DNA of 23,871 nucleotides. Origin: a virus. The notes below the pieces were generated by a model that made no database searches, was not told the DNA's origin, and saw only the letters and a list, made by a program, of their open reading frames with translations. The position numbers and the translations under genes were made by a program. The stretch lies in the UHGV virus genome UHGV-0138833; one strand, written 5' to 3'. This document shows positions 1 to 20,231 of this stretch, in pieces; position 1 is the stretch's first letter; each line of letters starts with the position of its first letter.

Positions 1-60
1 TCAGCGGCTGCGCCGCGCTTCGGGGCGATGTGGCCCCGCTGCTCCCTGGTATTTTCTTTC
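1..60. repeat. GC-rich ~55-bp element, copy A (second copy at 834-893)
   Basis: Hand alignment of 1-55 with 834-893 gives roughly 75-80 percent identity, sharing the core GCGG-TGCGC-GCGCTT-GGGG-ATGTGGC ... CC-GGGTATTT. Confidence 0.45.
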
Positions 61-146
61 GCCCCTTCCATGCCCTGTCGGGCATCACATGAATGTAACT
101 ATATGTATTTGATGGTGTTTTTTTTGAAGAATGGAGGGAAAAATAC

Positions 147-175
147 TTGATAATAGGTCAGTTCTGACCTATTAT
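147..175 (+). promoter_or_regulatory. Putative sigma70 promoter overlapped by a 26-bp palindromic operator
   Basis: -35 TTGATA (147-152), 17-bp spacer, -10 TATTAT (170-175). Perfect inverted repeat ATAATAGGTCAG-TT-CTGACCTATTAT (150-175) spans -35 to -10. Lies about 55 bp upstream of ORF 231-515. Confidence 0.4.
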
Positions 176-230
176 AAACACATCGGGAGGGGATGGTCCC
201 CAACCACCAAAGCCGCTCAGCGGCAGGAGC

Positions 231-515
231 ATGAAAATGCATTTCACAACTTTTCTAAAAAAACATTTCGATATAGAAAAAGTCGTTGGTACTTCTGATT
301 CTGGAAATGATACCGAATCTATTTATGTTTATGAAAAAGGAAATGATTGCGAACCGTTGTTTATTCTGCATGAATCCTGGCTAAATGCAGAAATTAAAAA
401 GTGTGGGGTATGGACTATTGGCAATATATATTCCACATTGGAACACGGAAAAGAATATTCTGAACAGGAACTAATAAAAATGATTAAGGAGGGTAAAGTA
501 ATCAGCAAATATTAA
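231..515 (+). CDS. Hypothetical protein (94 aa, soluble, AT-rich codon usage)
   Basis: Intact ORF with AGGAG 3-4 nt upstream of ATG 231 (alternative ATG at 237). No recognisable motif. Followed by a long hairpin. Confidence 0.55.
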   Translation: MKMHFTTFLKKHFDIEKVVGTSDSGNDTESIYVYEKGNDCEPLFILHESWLNAEIKKCGVWTIGNIYSTLEHGKEYSEQELIKMIKEGKVISKY

Positions 516-522
516 TTTGGGG

Positions 523-555
523 TTGGTAACAGGCTGTGGGGCAGCCTGTTACCAA
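523..555. terminator. Long perfect hairpin (12-14-bp stem), possible bidirectional terminator or RNA processing site
   Basis: GGTAACAGGCTG / CAGCCTGTTACC arms with TGGGG loop. No clean U-tract on either strand, so function is uncertain. Confidence 0.35.
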
Positions 556-584
556 ATGACAGATGCATCTTTGGAGATTCTCAA

Positions 585-719
585 ATGTCAGTATGTGAAA
601 TGATAGAGCTTGCAAACCGCATTGTAAATGGGGAACCTGTAAAAACACCCGCGATAGAAGCATGGATTATTAGCGAAATCATTTGGTGGGCGCATAACCG
701 GGATAATGCTTTAGTTTGA
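585..719 (+). CDS. Small hypothetical protein (44 aa), not in the supplied ORF track
   Basis: ATG 585 preceded by GGAG (573-576) at 8-nt spacing; translation MSVCEMIELANRIVNGEPVKTPAIEAWIISEIIWWAHNRDNALV; ends 10 nt before an intrinsic terminator. Confidence 0.3.
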   Translation: MSVCEMIELANRIVNGEPVKTPAIEAWIISEIIWWAHNRDNALV

Positions 720-728
720 GTCATATAT

Positions 729-759
729 GGGGAGAGTGTCATGCTCTCCCTTTCTTATT
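729..759 (+). terminator. Rho-independent terminator
   Basis: Stem GGGAGAG / CTCTCCC (7 bp), loop TGTCATG, then TTTCTTATT. Confidence 0.55.
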
Positions 760-774
760 GTGTAGCGCGTTGTA

Positions 775-828
775 TTACATAGTTAGCTTTACGTTGTAAA
801 GATTTTATTGTCTTTACAGTGTGGTGCG
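775..828. repeat. Composite inverted-repeat element, copy 1 of 3
   Basis: TTACATAG...CTTTAC-GTT-GTAAAG palindrome followed by TTGTCTTTACAGTGTGG. Same architecture recurs at 1379-1430 and 1528-1568. Confidence 0.5.
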
Positions 829-833
829 TTTTC

Positions 834-893
834 CGGCGGTTGCGCTGCGCTTAGGGGTATGTGGCTTCGATGATCCAGGGTATTTCGACGTAA
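834..893. repeat. GC-rich ~55-bp element, copy B
   Basis: See copy A at 1-60. Sits immediately after composite element copy 1 and before the 3' end of the minus-strand gene 903-1346. Confidence 0.45.
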
Positions 894-902
894 TGCGTTG
901 TA

Positions 903-1346
903 TTACGATGTATACTCTTTAATTGCTTGCAATCTCTTTTCACGTTCGTTGCTTTGTTGGGCCTTTTCCAGTTGGCTGTATATGTACTCTTCATCTTTAC
1001 CCGTGAGTATTGAGCCGGAGAGCAGACGATTAATAACTATACGTTTAATTTCTGGGTAATCTTTGGTTTTATCGAGTATGGACAATATGTGGTCACTGCT
1101 AAGAATTATCCCACTCCATGAGTCTAAATAGCTCTTAAAAATCACAATCATAAACACACCGAAAAGCATTATGATGATTGTTACCACATTAATGCTAAAC
1201 GTTGATATAAAGGTATACGCGGCCACACCAATTATTGCTAAACAGAGACATAAATAAATGAAACCGATTTTGTTGCGTTGCTTTTTTTCTGCACGATCAT
1301 GATCATCTATGATTTCCAGTATCTTTTCTGGGATTAGTTGAGTCAT
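903..1346 (-). CDS. Hypothetical membrane protein (147 aa, two predicted TM helices)
   Basis: Intact ORF with hydrophobic stretches IGFIYLCLCLAIIGVAAYTFI and VVTIIIMLFGVFMIVIF. AT-rich. Composite repeat copy 2 lies about 40 bp upstream of its start. Confidence 0.55.
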   Translation of the reverse strand: MTQLIPEKILEIIDDHDRAEKKQRNKIGFIYLCLCLAIIGVAAYTFISTFSINVVTIIIMLFGVFMIVIFKSYLDSWSGIILSSDHILSILDKTKDYPEIKRIVINRLLSGSILTGKDEEYIYSQLEKAQQSNEREKRLQAIKEYTS

Positions 1347-1378
1347 TTTCTTTCCTTATTTGGGACACGGAGTGTTTA

Positions 1379-1430
1379 ATTACATAGCTTTACATTGTAA
1401 ATCTATGTTTGTCTTTACGATGTAAATGAT
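1379..1430. repeat. Composite inverted-repeat element, copy 2 of 3
   Basis: TTACATAG + TTTACA-T-TGTAAA (perfect 6-bp inverted repeat, 1-bp spacer) + TTGTCTTTACGATGTAAAT. Confidence 0.5.
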
Positions 1431-1527
1431 GAGATGTGCAGTTAAAAGTGTCAATCAGATATCATATAGTAAAATACTATATTATTTTCTATGTATCACA
1501 TACACAGCGATAAAACTGGATAAATGA

Positions 1528-1568
1528 CTTACACTGTAAAGATTGAGCTGTCTTTACAGTGTGGTTCA
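1528..1568. repeat. Composite inverted-repeat element, copy 3 of 3 (upstream of the hicA promoter)
   Basis: CTTACACTGTAAAG + CTGTCTTTACAGTGTGG. The 13-mer TCTTTACAGTGTGG is identical to that in copy 1. Confidence 0.5.
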
Positions 1569-1590
1569 TAAGTCATACGAATGAAATAAT

Positions 1591-1619
1591 TTGCCTTTGT
1601 GTGTATGCGTGTGTATAAT
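1591..1619 (+). promoter_or_regulatory. Sigma70 promoter for hicAB
   Basis: -35 TTGCCT (1591-1596), 17-bp spacer, consensus -10 TATAAT (1614-1619); GGAGG RBS at 1633-1637 before ATG 1643. Confidence 0.55.
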
Positions 1620-1642
1620 TATCCTCAGGTTAGGGAGGACAT

Positions 1643-1825
1643 ATGAAATCTGCTGACCTGTTGAAAGAACTGATAGCTGCTGGTTGCGAGTTGAAACGGC
1701 ATAAGGCAAGCAGTCACCAGATATGGTGGTCGCCAATAACAGGAAAAACTTTTCCTGTTCCTCATCCTAAAAAGGACTTGCCGCTAGGTACTGTCAGATC
1801 GATCAAAAAAATGGCGGGGATTTAA
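1643..1825 (+). CDS. hicA: HicA-family toxin (mRNA interferase, 60 aa)
   Basis: Size, position upstream of a HicB-like gene, and pattern MK.S..L...G.......SSH ... G....P.HP...L..GT.RSI.K.AGI resembling E. coli HicA as recalled from memory. Confidence 0.7.
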   Translation: MKSADLLKELIAAGCELKRHKASSHQIWWSPITGKTFPVPHPKKDLPLGTVRSIKKMAGI

Positions 1826-1849
1826 TCCCCGCCGACTTTGGAGGTAGCC

Positions 1850-2287
1850 ATGTTCTTTTCTGTTGGTGTCGAAACACCGAAAGATGATCATACAGCATAC
1901 GGTATCACCGTTCCGGTTTTTGATTGCTTTGATTTTGGATGTGTTTCTGCTGCTGATTCTCAGGCAGAAATACCCGCAATGGCGCGTGAAGCGATATTGG
2001 CAATCGTGGAAGAGATGGTAATAAGCGGTGCTCATTCTGTTGATGATATTCATGATGAAGGGTGTTTGACTTATTCCGCCAACCCAAATTATAACCACTG
2101 TGATAGCTGGTTTGTAATTGATGTTGATTTGTCAGAAATTGAGGGCAAACAACAACGTATTAATATTTCATTGCCTGATGTATTGATTCGTCGTATTGAT
2201 GGATATGTGAGAGAAAGTGGTGGCGTATACAAAGATCGTAGCCATTTTCTGGCTCAGGCGGCACGTCATGAACTTGCATATAAATAA
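1850..2287 (+). CDS. hicB: HicB-family antitoxin (about 145 aa) with C-terminal ribbon-helix-helix-like tail
   Basis: Immediately downstream of hicA; ATG 1850 with GGAGG at 1839-1843 (track start 1838 is a TTG). C-terminus RINISLPDVLIRRIDGYVRESGG...SHFLAQAARHEL looks RHH-like. Confidence 0.65.
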   Translation: MFFSVGVETPKDDHTAYGITVPVFDCFDFGCVSAADSQAEIPAMAREAILAIVEEMVISGAHSVDDIHDEGCLTYSANPNYNHCDSWFVIDVDLSEIEGKQQRINISLPDVLIRRIDGYVRESGGVYKDRSHFLAQAARHELAYK

Positions 2288-2291
2288 AACT

Positions 2292-2320
2292 ATCCCCGCG
2301 TTGTGCGGGGATTTTTTTTG
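2292..2320 (+). terminator. Rho-independent terminator after hicB
   Basis: Stem ATCCCCGC / GCGGGGAT, loop GTTGT, followed by TTTTTTTT. Confidence 0.7.
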
Positions 2321-2417
2321 ATAGCTAACCGCTCGCCGCAGTCCAGCGACCGAGCATAGCGAGCGAGCGACGAGGAAGCGGAAGATCCACCGTTGCCAGG
2401 AGAAAAGCAGGTACGCA

Positions 2418-2738
2418 CTATGCGTTCTGCCCTAGTGATGCTTTCACAAACCACGCAGCCTGAACTATTACGCCATGAATCCAGCGTAAATCGGCATCAC
2501 GATTTTCTTTTTTCATTTTTTCGCCACTTAATGCCTTGCTTACGTGACTTTTTACCAGATTTTCGTGTAATTCTTTTGCTTCTTCAATTGTGAAACCACC
2601 AGGCAAATTTGGCGCTTCTGCTTCCAGTGATGCCAGAGCAATTTCATAAGCCCGACGCTCAATATTGTCTCGGACGTCCAGGCTGCCTATACGCTCTTTG
2701 ATTTCTTTAATCAGTTCTTTGTCGGTGAACGTTGTCAT
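2418..2738 (-). CDS. Hypothetical phage protein (106 aa)
   Basis: Intact ORF with AAGGA RBS upstream of ATG 2738. Shares the motif ALASLEAEA with the protein at 3014-3457, suggesting paralogy. Confidence 0.55.
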   Translation of the reverse strand: MTTFTDKELIKEIKERIGSLDVRDNIERRAYEIALASLEAEAPNLPGGFTIEEAKELHENLVKSHVSKALSGEKMKKENRDADLRWIHGVIVQAAWFVKASLGQNA

Positions 2739-2748
2739 GTGTTAGTCC

Positions 2749-3012
2749 TTATCCTGCTGTGCTTTCAACTGATGAGGGGAATAAAATCTTTTCATCAAAT
2801 CCGGCATTCATATCATGGACAGCAACACACCAATCCATCGACGAACGATTATCAAGAGCCTCCATGATTTCATCCATGCGGCGCAGGTCATACAGGTAAA
2901 TGCTTTTATCGCCAATGGTGTAAAAACCAATTTTTTTCGGTGATGGGCAGCGATCAAGAACGTCCTGTAATTCGTTCAACCATGCCCGTTCTTTTTTTGT
3001 TAAAGTTGCCAT
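2749..3012 (-). CDS. Hypothetical phage protein (about 88 aa)
   Basis: Start taken at MATLTKK (ATG 3012) with GGAGAG RBS; abuts the stop of the upstream gene. Confidence 0.5.
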   Translation of the reverse strand: MATLTKKERAWLNELQDVLDRCPSPKKIGFYTIGDKSIYLYDLRRMDEIMEALDNRSSMDWCVAVHDMNAGFDEKILFPSSVESTAG

Positions 3013-3013
3013 A

Positions 3014-3457
3014 TCACTCTCCTTTGATGCCAATGTTTACAGCCTGACAAGCCTCTTCGAGAACCCAGTCAACAGCGTCTTTCCATGCTACGGTTTCGAC
3101 TGCCGGATTCTCATTTTTTACCTGCTCATAAAAACGCACCGCTTTAACCAGTCCTTCAGGCACTACCGGCGCTGGCAAGGCAGCGTGATAGTAGAGTGGC
3201 ATAGTTTTGTACAGTGGTTCGCCAGGACTTCCGTCAACCTGATTCCATTCTTCAACCCAGGCATCAACAACCGCTTTGCTGGTTGATACATGTTCTTCTG
3301 AATCTACATTTTGTCCTGATATACAGAACATAACTGCCTCTGCTTCCAGCGATGCCAGAGCAATTCGTGCCAGTTCCATTTGTTCGCCACGAGTAAGTCC
3401 GTTATCAAGCGGATTTTTAATGAATAATTTGATACGTTCTTTGGTTATAGCGTTCAT
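3014..3457 (-). CDS. Hypothetical phage protein (about 148 aa)
   Basis: Start taken at MNAITKER (ATG 3457) with AAGGAGAG RBS. Ends ...IKGE, as does the upstream Ea22-like gene. Confidence 0.55.
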   Translation of the reverse strand: MNAITKERIKLFIKNPLDNGLTRGEQMELARIALASLEAEAVMFCISGQNVDSEEHVSTSKAVVDAWVEEWNQVDGSPGEPLYKTMPLYYHAALPAPVVPEGLVKAVRFYEQVKNENPAVETVAWKDAVDWVLEEACQAVNIGIKGE

Positions 3458-8889: not shown

Positions 8890-9087
8890 CACTCAACATC
8901 AATAACGGGGAGCTGTTTCGCATAAAACGGCTCCGAAACATCCAAGAACAGTTCTAAAGATATCAGCAGCTATATGATCATTTCAAGACCAAATATTGAT
9001 TCTGCAATTTCGGGACGTTACACTGTCTCTGCACCTTATAAAGCGGGTGCCGGGGGTCGCAGCCCGGAATTGTCAACGGCGATATAT

Positions 9088-9108
9088 GACGCGCCAGCGT
9101 CTTTTTTA
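9088..9108 (+). terminator. Short intrinsic terminator candidate in the leader of the second Rha gene (tR1-like position)
   Basis: Stem GACGC / GCGTC, loop GCCA, followed by TTTTTTA. Confidence 0.35.
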
Positions 9109-9273
9109 TCGTCCGCGCTCACGCACGCCAGAATTATGGTGGGCTGGGCAGGGGAGCCGAAAGGCTCGCCGGTCTCCGTTGACGCCGGTACTGCGAACCC
9201 TGTTCAGTCTGCCACCAGTGAGTTTCGCAGCTCCGGTGGTGGAAGTTTTCCACAGTCAACGGAGGCTGCCATC

Positions 9274-11526: not shown

Positions 11527-12426
11527 ATGATGACGATTGACCAACGTGAGAAACAAACAAGACTACAGGCGCGAATGGATGAGTTACGGGCAGAAATGGA
11601 TGAGTTACGGGCAGAGATTGCATTTGCTCAGAAGGGCGAAAAGCCATGGCCTTATCGTTCCTGCCTGATGCGTGAAGGTCGCGGATATTGCGAAAAACAC
11701 GGTAAATATCGTACGCATATACTGGTGTGGATCGATCGTAATGGCGAGGACAGAGAAAAAATTTCATGCTGCCCTGACTGCTTGATCGCTGAGGCCAGTG
11801 ATTTGACCATGGAACTGTCGTCCCTCAAGGCGGAAGAACTGACTGATAACGCCGGAATTGCTCTGCGTTTTCGGGACTGCGAGTTTGATAATTATCTGGA
11901 GGTTAATCCTGACGCAGCCAGAAATCTTGCGGCCTGTCGCCGCTATGCGGAGAACTGGCCAGATATGCTGGAGAACGGTACCAGTCTTGTTATGACCGGC
12001 AGTTGCGGTACCGGGAAAAATCATCTGGCGGTATCAATGGCAAAACACATCATCCGTAACTATCTGGCCAGTGTGGAGATCACCGACGTGATGCGCCTTA
12101 CCCGGGCTGTGAAAAACTGCTGGCGGAATGACAGTGAAAAAACAGCGGATGACGTCATTGAGCATTATGCGTCACTGGATTTGCTGATTGTCGACGAAGT
12201 CGGCGTTCAGTTTGGCAGTGCGGCTGAAATGGCCATTTTGCAGGAAATTATCAATGCCCGGTATGAGGGTATTTTGCCAACTATCTTGATCAGCAATCTT
12301 TCACCGGAAGAATTGTGGGCGTTCATCAGTCCCCGGATTGCCGACAGGATCACCGATGGCGGGCGCAACTGGTTGTCGTTTAACTGGCCCAGCTACCGTT
12401 CTCGTATCGGAGGTGTTGCCGCATGA
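11527..12426 (+). CDS. DnaC-like helicase loader / IstB-type AAA+ ATPase (about 299 aa)
   Basis: Walker A GSCGTGKNHLA and Walker B LLIVDEVG. Start ATG 11527 after GAGGTGA. Contains a perfect 21-bp tandem duplication (RAEMDELRAEMDEL). Confidence 0.75.
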   Translation: MMTIDQREKQTRLQARMDELRAEMDELRAEIAFAQKGEKPWPYRSCLMREGRGYCEKHGKYRTHILVWIDRNGEDREKISCCPDCLIAEASDLTMELSSLKAEELTDNAGIALRFRDCEFDNYLEVNPDAARNLAACRRYAENWPDMLENGTSLVMTGSCGTGKNHLAVSMAKHIIRNYLASVEITDVMRLTRAVKNCWRNDSEKTADDVIEHYASLDLLIVDEVGVQFGSAAEMAILQEIINARYEGILPTILISNLSPEELWAFISPRIADRITDGGRNWLSFNWPSYRSRIGGVAA

Positions 12427-19089: not shown

Positions 19090-19165
19090 GGCCCTTTAGC
19101 TCAGTGGTGAGAGCGAGCGACTCATAATCGCCAGGTCGCTGGTTCAAATCCAGCAAGGGCCACCA
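19090..19165 (+). tRNA. tRNA with anticodon CAU (Ile2-like, ileX/ileZ type; Met not excluded)
   Basis: Manual cloverleaf: acceptor GGCCCTT/AAGGGCC, D-arm GCTC..GAGC, anticodon loop CTCATAA, T-arm GCTGG-TTCAAAT-CCAGC, encoded CCA. Resembles E. coli ileX as recalled. Confidence 0.8.
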
Positions 19166-19172
19166 TCACATA

Positions 19173-19249
19173 CCGCCATTAGCTCATCAGGAAAGAGCGC
19201 CAGCCTTCGAAGCTGGCTGCGCGGGGTTCAAGTCCCCGATGGCGGTCCA
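19173..19249 (+). tRNA. tRNA-Arg (anticodon UCG)
   Basis: Manual cloverleaf: acceptor CCGCCAT/ATGGCGG, anticodon stem CCAGC/GCTGG with loop CTTCGAA, T-arm CGGGG-TTCAAGT-CCCCG, encoded CCA. Confidence 0.75.
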
Positions 19250-19262
19250 TTATCTGCATCAT

Positions 19263-19339
19263 GCGTTGTTAGCTCAGCCGGACAGAGCAATTGCCTTCTA
19301 AGCAATCGGTCACTGGTTCGAATCCAGTACAGCGCGCCA
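19263..19339 (+). tRNA. tRNA-Arg (anticodon UCU)
   Basis: Manual cloverleaf: acceptor GCGTTGT/ACAGCGC (one G-U pair), anticodon stem ATTGC/GCAAT with loop CTTCTAA, T-arm ACTGG-TTCGAAT-CCAGT, G73, encoded CCA. Confidence 0.8.
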
Positions 19340-19803: not shown

Positions 19804-20195
19804 ATACATATCTGGATTATCACCGGTTACGGTAAAAAGTGATTGCTTACTGTTTTTGTGAATGGCATTGCAGCAGCCGGATAATGTCAGTGCTGGCTGA
19901 CGGTGTGCTGGTGGCGGGTGTGGTGGTTGCTGCTTTCCCGTTGCTGAAAAAGAAAACGCCAGACTGTTAGCCGGGTATCAGTTAGCGGGAGAAATTTTTA
20001 AATACTTCACAATTCAGGCGGTTGACTGTTGTCTGGTTTGCGGGGAGTTTGTTAAAAGAAACTGGCATGGTGAATCCCCCTGTGCGGAGGGGCAATCAGC
20101 GAGTAGGTATATGGGATAATCGCGGATTCAGGTGCTGGTACTGAATTCACCGGGAGGCACCCGGCACCATGCAATGGCACATAGCGCCACTCTCC

Positions 20196-20231
20196 AGCCC
20201 CTCTCCGGAGGGGCTGTTTATATTGATTTTG
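20196..20231 (+). terminator. Rho-independent terminator ending a GC-rich structured segment
   Basis: AGCCCCTC-TCCG-GAGGGGCT (8-bp stem) followed by GTTTATATTGATTTTG. A sibling hairpin CCCCT-GTGCGG-AGGGG lies at 20077-20092. Confidence 0.65.

Follow-up and report, generated by a model that had tools for sequence, protein, structure and literature searches.

Paired palindromic boxes and a GC-rich repeat in IncI2-like plasmid DNA next to a lambdoid prophage: candidate sites of a partition-type ribbon-helix-helix protein

The virus genome UHGV-0138833 was analysed as one strand of 23,871 nt, and this whole stretch is called the window below. The subject here is the block at its left end (about 1-1640), in which three paired palindromic boxes (sites 1-3) and a GC-rich element lie among small genes in front of the toxin-antitoxin operon hicAB. 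In the preliminary description, made from the letters alone, this block was taken as accessory cargo of a prophage, carrying three copies of a composite inverted-repeat element and two copies of a GC-rich element of about 55 bp. The features of the locus are listed in the order of their positions:

1-80, plus strand: 3′ end of a GC-rich structured core, 100% identical to 12001-12080 of locus L001 of the plasmid pH6437-2
69-86, plus strand: terminal hairpin of the core, CATGCCCTGTCGGGCATC (helix 9, with compensatory changes)
147-175, plus strand: sigma70-like promoter TTGATA-17-TATTAT of a repeated module, present in every module copy, with a perfect 12-bp inverted repeat at 150-175
231-515 and 585-719, plus strand: two small open reading frames (ORFs) of 94 aa and 44 aa driven by the module, hypothetical in the IncI2 annotation
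729-751, plus strand: terminator-like hairpin at the end of the small-ORF operon, preceding site 1
787-801 and 812-826, no strand assigned: boxes of site 1, CTTTACGTTGTAAAG (a perfect palindrome) and CTTTACAGTGTGGTG, from repeat and motif search
836-885, plus strand: degenerate relic of the 3′ part of the core, with 39/51 identities to the repeat
903-1346, minus strand: gene of a 147-aa predicted membrane protein, with only a weak STM3941-family match
1388-1402 and 1413-1427, no strand assigned: boxes of site 2, CTTTACATTGTAAAT and CTTTACGATGTAAAT, from repeat and motif search
1454-1449 (TTGACA) and 1431-1426 (CATCAT), minus strand: predicted promoter of the membrane-protein gene
1527-1541 and 1552-1566, no strand assigned: boxes of site 3, ACTTACACTGTAAAG and CTTTACAGTGTGGTT, together a 19-nt inverted repeat
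1591-1619, plus strand: predicted core promoter of hicAB, TTGCCT-17-TATAAT (TTGCCT from 1591, TATAAT from 1614)
1643-1825, plus strand: hicA, from ORF calling and plasmid match
1813-1833, plus strand: predicted terminator inside hicA
1850-2287, plus strand: hicB, from ORF calling and plasmid match

Profile searches with the two small ORFs (231-515 and 585-719) gave no family assignment. The HicAB system of IncI2 plasmids and the terminator inside hicA have been described (PMC11878559).

The repeat search of the window returned a 48-nt family of three copies (775-822, 1376-1423 and 1515-1562), and each copy of the composite element resolves into two 15-bp palindromic boxes of the form CTTTAC-N3-GTAAAG, 25 bp apart from centre to centre, the best-conserved part being the pair of inner half-sites, TGTAAAG-N10-CTTTACA. 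The three intergenic composite elements of the preliminary description are thus real, lie where it had placed them (787-826, 1388-1427 and 1527-1566) and are non-random: when CTTTACNNNGTAAAG was searched with at most two mismatches, the 23.9-kb window gave five matches where 0.71 were expected, a count not reached in any of 100 shuffles, and four of the five fall within 787-1541. Site 1 is located between convergent genes, where there is no promoter; the second box of site 2 (1413-1427) overlaps the -10/+1 region of the predicted membrane-gene promoter; and site 3 is located 25-65 bp upstream of the -35 hexamer of hicAB. The idea that the elements share a regulator also holds up, since one common DNA-binding protein best explains non-random boxes in these intergenic positions.

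The assignment of the block to a prophage does not survive comparison. Positions 1-3365 match pH6437-2, a plasmid of E. coli O157:H7, at 99.91% identity in a single uninterrupted alignment, and a search of 5426 complete E. coli genomes with positions 1-2400 gave 1559 matching places, 1549 of them on plasmids of about 55-65 kb, while a phage collection searched with the block DNA gave no match. This distribution also speaks against a ubiquitous chromosomal repeat of the repetitive extragenic palindromic (REP) kind. pH6437-2 carries a shufflon, pil (type IV pilus) genes, a VirB-type type IV secretion system and a NikA-like relaxase operon; pBK15692, with the same block aboard, is typed as IncI2; and for the 147-aa protein all ten neighbourhoods listed were IncI2 (28 contigs read). 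On the IncI2 plasmid, 3-5 kb separate the block from the presumed origin of transfer (oriT), with the relaxase gene on the other side, and by analogy with IncI1 the block would be the leading region. Positions 2731-23871 are lambdoid prophage, and 2731-3365 are common to IncI2 plasmids and lambdoid prophages at about 99% identity, so that this segment is the likely point at which plasmid and prophage recombined, or at which an assembly chimera was formed. That is to say, as judged from sequence identity, positions 1-3365 derive from the leading/maintenance region of an IncI2 conjugative plasmid and have become joined to lambdoid prophage DNA, and in genome annotation the "prophage accessory block" here is to be understood as plasmid DNA attached to a prophage. 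Since the plasmid/prophage junction is absent from all the complete E. coli genomes searched, and since the start of the window falls inside the third copy of a three-copy plasmid repeat, the hybrid may be either a true cointegrate or an assembly chimera.

With the plasmid at hand, the boxes could be followed beyond the window. In pH6437-2 there are 12 box matches with at most two mismatches against 2.4 expected, and the good ones are restricted to two places, namely sites 1-3 and the par locus. Five boxes lie upstream of parA (L001 8743-8852), where the predicted -35 (TTTACA) and -10 (TACAAT) hexamers of parA are both inside boxes, and one perfect box (L001 8020-8034) lies between parA and the gene of a 94-aa protein, WP_001162371.1, which starts 73 bp after parA. 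A perfect box core, TTTACTGTGTAAA, also occurs inside the relaxase (LPD7) gene of pH6437-2 (L001 20812-20824), and may be either chance or an additional site.

The ParA of IncI2 plasmids is a Walker-type protein of 221 aa, annotated as "MipZ" and without an N-terminal DNA-binding domain; its Pfam matches are CbiA, MipZ, AAA_31 and ParA (E 1e-7 to 1e-11), and it matches the NCBIfam ParA_partition model over its full length at E=2.9e-29, yet under the equivalog cut-off. For WP_001162371.1, Pfam gives ribbon-helix-helix (RHH) family RHH_1 at E=0.003, and the best PDB profile match is a CopG-family protein. The AlphaFold2 model made with an alignment (predicted local distance difference test score, pLDDT, of 77 overall) contains a strand-helix-helix core with values of 84-94 over residues 41-90; it replaced a poor single-sequence model (pLDDT 61). 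The top Foldseek matches of this model are all RHH proteins (CopG 1ea4 with a template-modelling score of 0.75, Reg576, Arc and NikA-N), at a non-significant E of 0.6.

The relatives of this protein carry the same arrangement. A word-based protein search with WP_001162371.1 returned only the IncI2 copies and frameshift variants, and an exhaustive search gave a small family of 28 representatives. In a Morganella plasmid and in two metagenome lineages, homologues of 36-52% identity are encoded immediately behind a small ParA, and upstream of parA in each of them (the metagenome cassettes being L019 and L021), boxes of the form (C/A)TTTAC-N3-GTAAA are iterated as in IncI2. The box in the spacer between parA and the RHH gene is likewise present in both of the relative lineages in which the spacer was read, and the order ParA-then-RHH was found in four lineages beyond IncI2.

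A natural swap points in the same direction. In the plasmids p_STEC1588_3 and pMTY9757 the genes are arranged as in IncI2, but the par cassette is an unrelated one, with a ParA of 33% identity and an unrelated RHH protein, and the box is a 16-bp palindrome, TGTGTA-N4-TACACA, in six and five perfect copies, respectively. These copies are located at the par locus and beside toxin-antitoxin modules, in the latter case 140-190 bp upstream of the operons. pMTY9757 has one of these boxes 188 nt in front of a near-identical hicAB, directly after the terminator of the homologue of the 44-aa ORF, which is the position of site 1 in the window. The two kinds of box, CTTTAC and TGTGTA-N4-TACACA, are mutually exclusive between the two plasmid types. 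The boxes of the relatives, the natural swap and the copies of hicAB that have no box together link the box with the ParA-RHH cassette and speak against HicB as its binder. The CTTTAC-N3-GTAAAG box is then most plausibly, with a probability that we put at roughly 70%, the recognition site of the IncI2 partition RHH protein WP_001162371.1; the patterns and distribution of the boxes, their covariation with the par type and the fold family of the protein are what is shown, and binding by the protein, like repression or centromere activity, is inferred from them. The binders put forward in the preliminary description, HicB and proteins of the CI and XRE types, are not the best candidates, as the type of box follows the ParA-associated RHH protein, which is encoded outside the window.

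As regards HicB, a rival explanation is that this antitoxin, encoded beside site 3, binds the boxes as operators and so autoregulates hicAB together with the neighbouring genes. Site 3 does lie just upstream of hicAB, and HicB has an RHH C-terminal domain and represses the hicA promoter in reporter assays (PMC11878559). However, in the copies of hicAB that are 84-91% identical at the nucleotide level, in the IncF, pKPX-1 and pMTY9757 backbones, the core promoter is kept from the -35 hexamer on and the CTTTAC boxes are absent, with none found within 400 nt of hicAB in any of the three; pMTY9757 encodes near-identical HicA and HicB, yet its upstream box is of the other type and matches its own par cassette; and the CTTTAC box is iterated at par loci with no annotated or called hicAB in the fetched stretches (17.7, 7.3 and 8.3 kb). 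A better candidate for the operator of HicB is at hand in the direct repeat of GTGTGTAT (1599-1606 and 1609-1616), which spans the spacer and the -10 hexamer of the hicAB promoter. The core promoter, which includes this repeat, is the only upstream part conserved with hicAB across these three backbones, and because it is the sole upstream feature so conserved, the GTGTGTAT repeat is probably the HicB operator, as far as comparative sequence can tell. That HicB should bind the boxes is very improbable indeed. Phage homologues of HicB were also collected for comparison of operators, and all of them, at less than 45% identity, were of no use.

The boxes could also bind some other regulator, either a protein of the IncI2 backbone (the StbA-like 159-aa protein, a CaiF/GrlA-type protein or an Xre-like helix-turn-helix (HTH) protein) or a host factor that recognises half-sites of the TTTACA type. 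Several small DNA-binding proteins are indeed encoded nearby, the lineages with a different box also differ in other backbone genes, and the TTTACA half-site is similar to -35 hexamers and recalls some OmpR-type sites. This explanation is nonetheless improbable: parA and the RHH gene are the only pair of genes that co-occurs with the box in all four lineages examined, two of which are represented by short metagenome contigs and another by a Morganella plasmid whose backbone differs; the Xre-like HTH protein and its operon are common to IncX4 plasmids and p_STEC1588_3, both without the CTTTAC box; and a host factor does not explain a lineage-specific swap of the box.

The preliminary description had offered, as its other explanation, that the repeats are recombination or insertion signatures of cargo cassettes, in which case the boxes would be scars (attC-like or site-specific) bounding the cassettes, with no regulatory protein. 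The sites are located at junctions of gene blocks; the two copies of a 17-nt direct repeat (762-778 and 890-906) flank site 1 together with the GC-rich relic; in R721 the homology ends inside site 1, and plasmids differ in whether a 405-bp cassette directly follows the relic; and the repeated GC-rich modules are obvious substrates for homologous recombination. Part of this idea stands, for the GC-rich modules do head cassettes and the insertions and deletions occur there. It finds no support for the boxes, as no integrase or recombinase co-occurs with them, and the one mapped cassette breakpoint (L015) is at window position 694, about 90 bp from site 1. In addition, the box forms an ordered array that contains the -35 and -10 hexamers of parA and is conserved with the ParA-RHH cassette over 36-52% protein identity, and the box type has been exchanged in place so that it agrees with the par type, as would not be expected of a passive scar. 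As an account of the boxes, scars are quite improbable.

Several observations weigh against the RHH protein as the ligand of the boxes, or against a role of the dispersed sites. First of all, the RHH assignment of WP_001162371.1 rests on sub-threshold scores, the RHH_1 match being under the gathering score and the Foldseek E value being the 0.6 given above, and a literature search for an IncI2 centromere or partition system found no relevant paper. Secondly, the difference in par type between lineages goes together with differences in other backbone genes, so that another lineage-specific regulator is possible. Thirdly, natural variants lose boxes: a 13-bp deletion in pBK15692 (equivalent to window 1410-1422) takes out half of site 2, and a 25-bp deletion in pS35CTX (equivalent to window 1540-1564) takes out most of site 3, from which it follows that the dispersed sites are dispensable rather than essential. 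Finally, site 2 is the only one to overlap a core promoter. Site 3 and the TGTGTA-type boxes are 25-190 bp upstream of promoters and site 1 is placed between convergent genes, so that direct repression by these is no more than a possibility. Footprinting among IncI2 variants has little power here, as most are at least 99% identical, and the pGD81/R721 lineage, about 90% identical, is only modestly helpful; in that lineage the substitutions shift the first boxes of sites 2 and 3 (2a and 3a) toward the consensus.

If the RHH protein is the ligand, the following scheme can be proposed. At the par locus, the five boxes over the parA promoter and the one in the parA-RHH spacer would serve as a type-Ib centromere and auto-operator, and the same protein is predicted to bind the dispersed sites 1-3. 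Site 2 would directly repress the promoter of the membrane-protein gene; site 3 would act on the divergent control region of hicAB and the membrane-protein gene, or be an accessory centromere; and site 1 would stand at the head of a cassette that has since been truncated. The window encodes no parA and no RHH gene, so the sites are orphans here, unless the protein comes from the remainder of the plasmid, lying upstream, or from a co-resident IncI2 plasmid.

Among the known systems, type Ib partition with an RHH centromere-binding protein, such as ParF/ParG-parH of TP228 and ParA/ParB-parC1/parC2 of pB171 par2, offers a close counterpart in gene order. The IncI2 locus is similar in its small Walker-type ParA followed by a protein of about 94 aa with a flexible N-terminal tail and a predicted C-terminal RHH fold, and in its iterated short sites upstream of parA that overlap the promoter, with a further site across parA; it differs in that the site is a 15-bp palindrome at 20-25 bp spacing instead of 4-bp or 6-bp tandem boxes, in that extra boxes are dispersed 4-5 kb away beside unrelated genes, and in that the putative IncI2 RHH protein has no detected homology with ParG. 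KorB of IncP-1 plasmids is a partition protein whose OB sites are scattered over the plasmid, sometimes distant from promoters, and it acts as a global regulator. The IncI2 boxes are likewise scattered and some are away from promoters, but KorB is an HTH, CTP-dependent ParB protein that slides and spreads on DNA, while the IncI2 protein would be a small RHH dimer, for which we know of no spreading mechanism.

The closest functional analogue, judged by analogy, would be the omega protein (ParB) of pSM19035. Omega of the inc18 plasmid pSM19035 is an RHH protein, and its repeat arrays overlap the promoters of copS, delta/parA and omega, doubling as operators and as parS centromeres (PMC9499535). 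Par-type boxes are found in IncI2, too, both at par and beside a toxin-antitoxin operon. Omega, however, binds contiguous 7-bp heptads, 7-10 per site, over promoters, while the IncI2 sites are paired 15-bp palindromes of which only some lie over a core promoter; moreover, the host range of IncI2 is Gram-negative and there is no sequence relationship between the two.

The other repeated feature of the block is the GC-rich element, which the preliminary description had given as a 55-bp element in two copies, at 1-55 and 834-893. The repetition itself is borne out (23-54 against 854-885, 75% identity in the repeat search), with the second copy being degenerate: in a gapped alignment, 836-885 corresponds to positions 224-274 of the repeat with a score of 45, against a maximum of 26 in 500 shuffles. 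A separate 55-bp element does not exist, as positions 1-55 are the cut-off 3′ end of a repeat unit, a module of about 450 nt that has three copies in pH6437-2 and includes a GC-rich core of about 280 nt. Downstream of the core, the module contains an AT-rich stretch, the near-consensus TTGATA-17-TATTAT promoter with its palindrome, and a conserved 5′ untranslated region. The promoter spacer and the -10 hexamer form the inverted repeat ATAATAGGTCAG/CTGACCTATTAT (window 147-175; L001 9240-9268 and 12146-12176), and in the module copies of p_STEC1588_3 (L016, about 19290-19330) a different palindrome, AATACATCTA/TAGATGTATT, lies in the same place. From such sequences, the palindrome looks like a lineage-specific operator of a repressor that would allow zygotic induction, and the small Xre-like HTH protein at the end of the preceding operon is a candidate for that repressor. 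The relic at 836-885 is followed, in pGD81-1 and R721, by the remainder of the module and by a cassette of about 405 bp with an orphan hicB-like ORF, and this hicB-like cassette, which would follow window position 885/886, has by this comparison been lost in the lineage of the window.

The core is widespread in plasmids, being present in 1226 PLSDB plasmids, with an identity of about 92% in IncX4 and of 77-80% in IncX6-type and Morganella plasmids. About 120 nt of it are nearly invariant across IncI2, IncX4, IncX6-type and Morganella plasmids, while the flanks have diverged to 77-80%. In five plasmids, the copies examined lie, with one exception, upstream of operons directed toward oriT and the relaxase gene, and in the metagenome loci with at least two copies, the copies are all on the same strand (27/27). 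The exceptional copy, in p_STEC1588_3 (L016 42164-42384 and, past the start of the record, 8-36), is flanked by the coupling-protein and virB11 genes, with no co-oriented gene after it and in the same orientation as all other copies. Short matches of the core to IncF plasmids (H104 and H105) were uninformative fragments.

The folding of the core as single-stranded DNA was examined on the template strand, where the z-score is -4.8. Compensatory changes occupy 21 cells, against 6.6 ± 1.9 in shuffles, none of 500 shuffles being as high, and at least two hairpins of the core are kept by such changes; in helix 9 (window 69-86), four of the six pairs change on both sides, and CG is exchanged for GC in 7-8 of 25 sequences. 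A preference for one strand was also sought in the G·T and A·C pairs (34 against 6, minus strand), and this was set aside as biased, because the structure had been predicted on the minus strand and the plus-strand energy is similar.

It can be imagined that the core is a signal for single-strand priming or a single-strand promoter on the transferred strand, this strand being the one implied by the arrangement of NikA and the relaxase gene. The core stands, with a sigma70 promoter that would be repressible, at the head of each operon pointing toward oriT. Against it, both strands of the core fold about equally (-67.8 and -64.8 kcal/mol); blastn with word size 7 against Frpo1/Frpo2 of ColIb-P9, ssiD/ssiE of F and two published candidates found no similarity (best E=0.11, chance matches of 9-28 nt only); and no pair of -35 and -10 hexamers at 16-18-nt spacing was seen in the core stems, both arms of which were read by eye, not systematically scanned, the only good promoter near the core being the conventional one downstream. 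The same observations, together with the fact that Rfam at gathering thresholds gave no family in the block region for the window and the plasmid locus, and that internally deleted and truncated copies of the core exist, would suit a core without any function in single-stranded DNA. It might then be a repeat of a selfish or neutral kind, might insulate or terminate transcription between operons, or might encode a small RNA and be retained through its linkage to the promoter module. Such a core would hardly be expected to keep some 120 nt almost invariant beside diverged flanks, to maintain at least two hairpins by compensatory changes or to be so strictly co-oriented, and the copy of p_STEC1588_3 that no co-oriented gene follows argues for a strand-specific role that is independent of a promoter. 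A core without such a function is a serious possibility, if short of probable; the priming or promoter signal is only tentatively suggested. A literature search for the leading region of IncX4 and for the core sequence string returned nothing relevant. In summary, the boxes are graded here as probable partition-type sites, and the role suggested for the GC-rich core as the less certain of the two.

For comparison, the module of about 450 nt in IncI2 and IncX4, with a promoter and an operator-like palindrome at the head of each operon, resembles the CUP element of IncN plasmids, which also has a promoter. The likeness is one of layout, none in sequence being expected, and the IncI2/IncX4 module differs in its extra GC-rich structured core of about 280 nt. 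CUP of pKM101/R46 is a repeated non-coding module upstream of several leading-region genes that carries the operator of the plasmid repressor ArdK (PMC6289460, citing Delver & Belogurov 1997). The Frpo/ssi elements known from F and ColIb-P9, like the more recent class 2 and 3 hairpins of pESBL, are large, stable, repeated hairpins in front of leading-region operons that have the transferred strand as their template (PMC11541004, PMC12672017). The core of IncI2 and IncX4 corresponds to them in position, orientation, repetition and strong folding, but it is followed by a conventional double-strand promoter with an operator, and no -35/-10 pair was seen in its stems.

The two readings may be linked, such that the RHH partition protein is a plasmid-wide regulator or organiser and the core a new, sequence-unrelated class of single-strand initiation signal; taken jointly, this is unlikely as a whole. 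If it were true, the boxes, which look as if purposely positioned beside toxin-antitoxin modules and at the heads of leading-region cassettes and which change in place with an exchange of the par cassette, would couple segregation, addiction and establishment. The core, for its part, would lie directly in front of each repressible promoter and there prime, on the strand that enters the cell, either transcription or the synthesis of the complementary strand, so that the establishment operons would become double-stranded and be expressed first. The colistin-resistance gene mcr-1 is carried mainly by IncI2 and IncX4 plasmids, of whose maintenance and establishment circuits little has been characterised. 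The box provides a concrete candidate for the centromere/operator sequence of the IncI2 partition system and could be a target for incompatibility or curing, and its distribution suggests that the partition protein also touches the hicAB addiction module, which has been shown to drive competition between plasmids (PMC11878559). The structured core at the heads of leading-region operons is a candidate for a new class of early-entry signal; single-strand promoters are, like the anti-defence genes of leading regions, a subject of current research (PMC11541004, PMC12672017).

Some minor observations were made along the way. A GC-rich element downstream of hicB (2326-2383) is 83% identical to a stretch upstream of hicA in pMTY9757 (L027 3300-3358). 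A 110-nt segment at the 5′ end of a 106-aa gene (within window 2614-3365) is repeated at the head of a neighbouring gene in IncI2 plasmids, and the IncI2 variants are mosaic past about window position 2740. Among 185,579 species-representative genomes there was one exact match, itself an IncI2 fragment: this contig, JAEWTL010000067.1 (21 kb, from a GTDB species-representative metagenome-assembled genome named "Bacillota bacterium"), is 99% identical to IncI2 plasmid DNA, and is probably a case of mis-binning or contamination. In the prophage part of the window, Rfam matches isrK with an adjoining C4 antisense RNA, three tRNA genes and STnc100 (9031-9219, 19090-19336 and 20036-20225).

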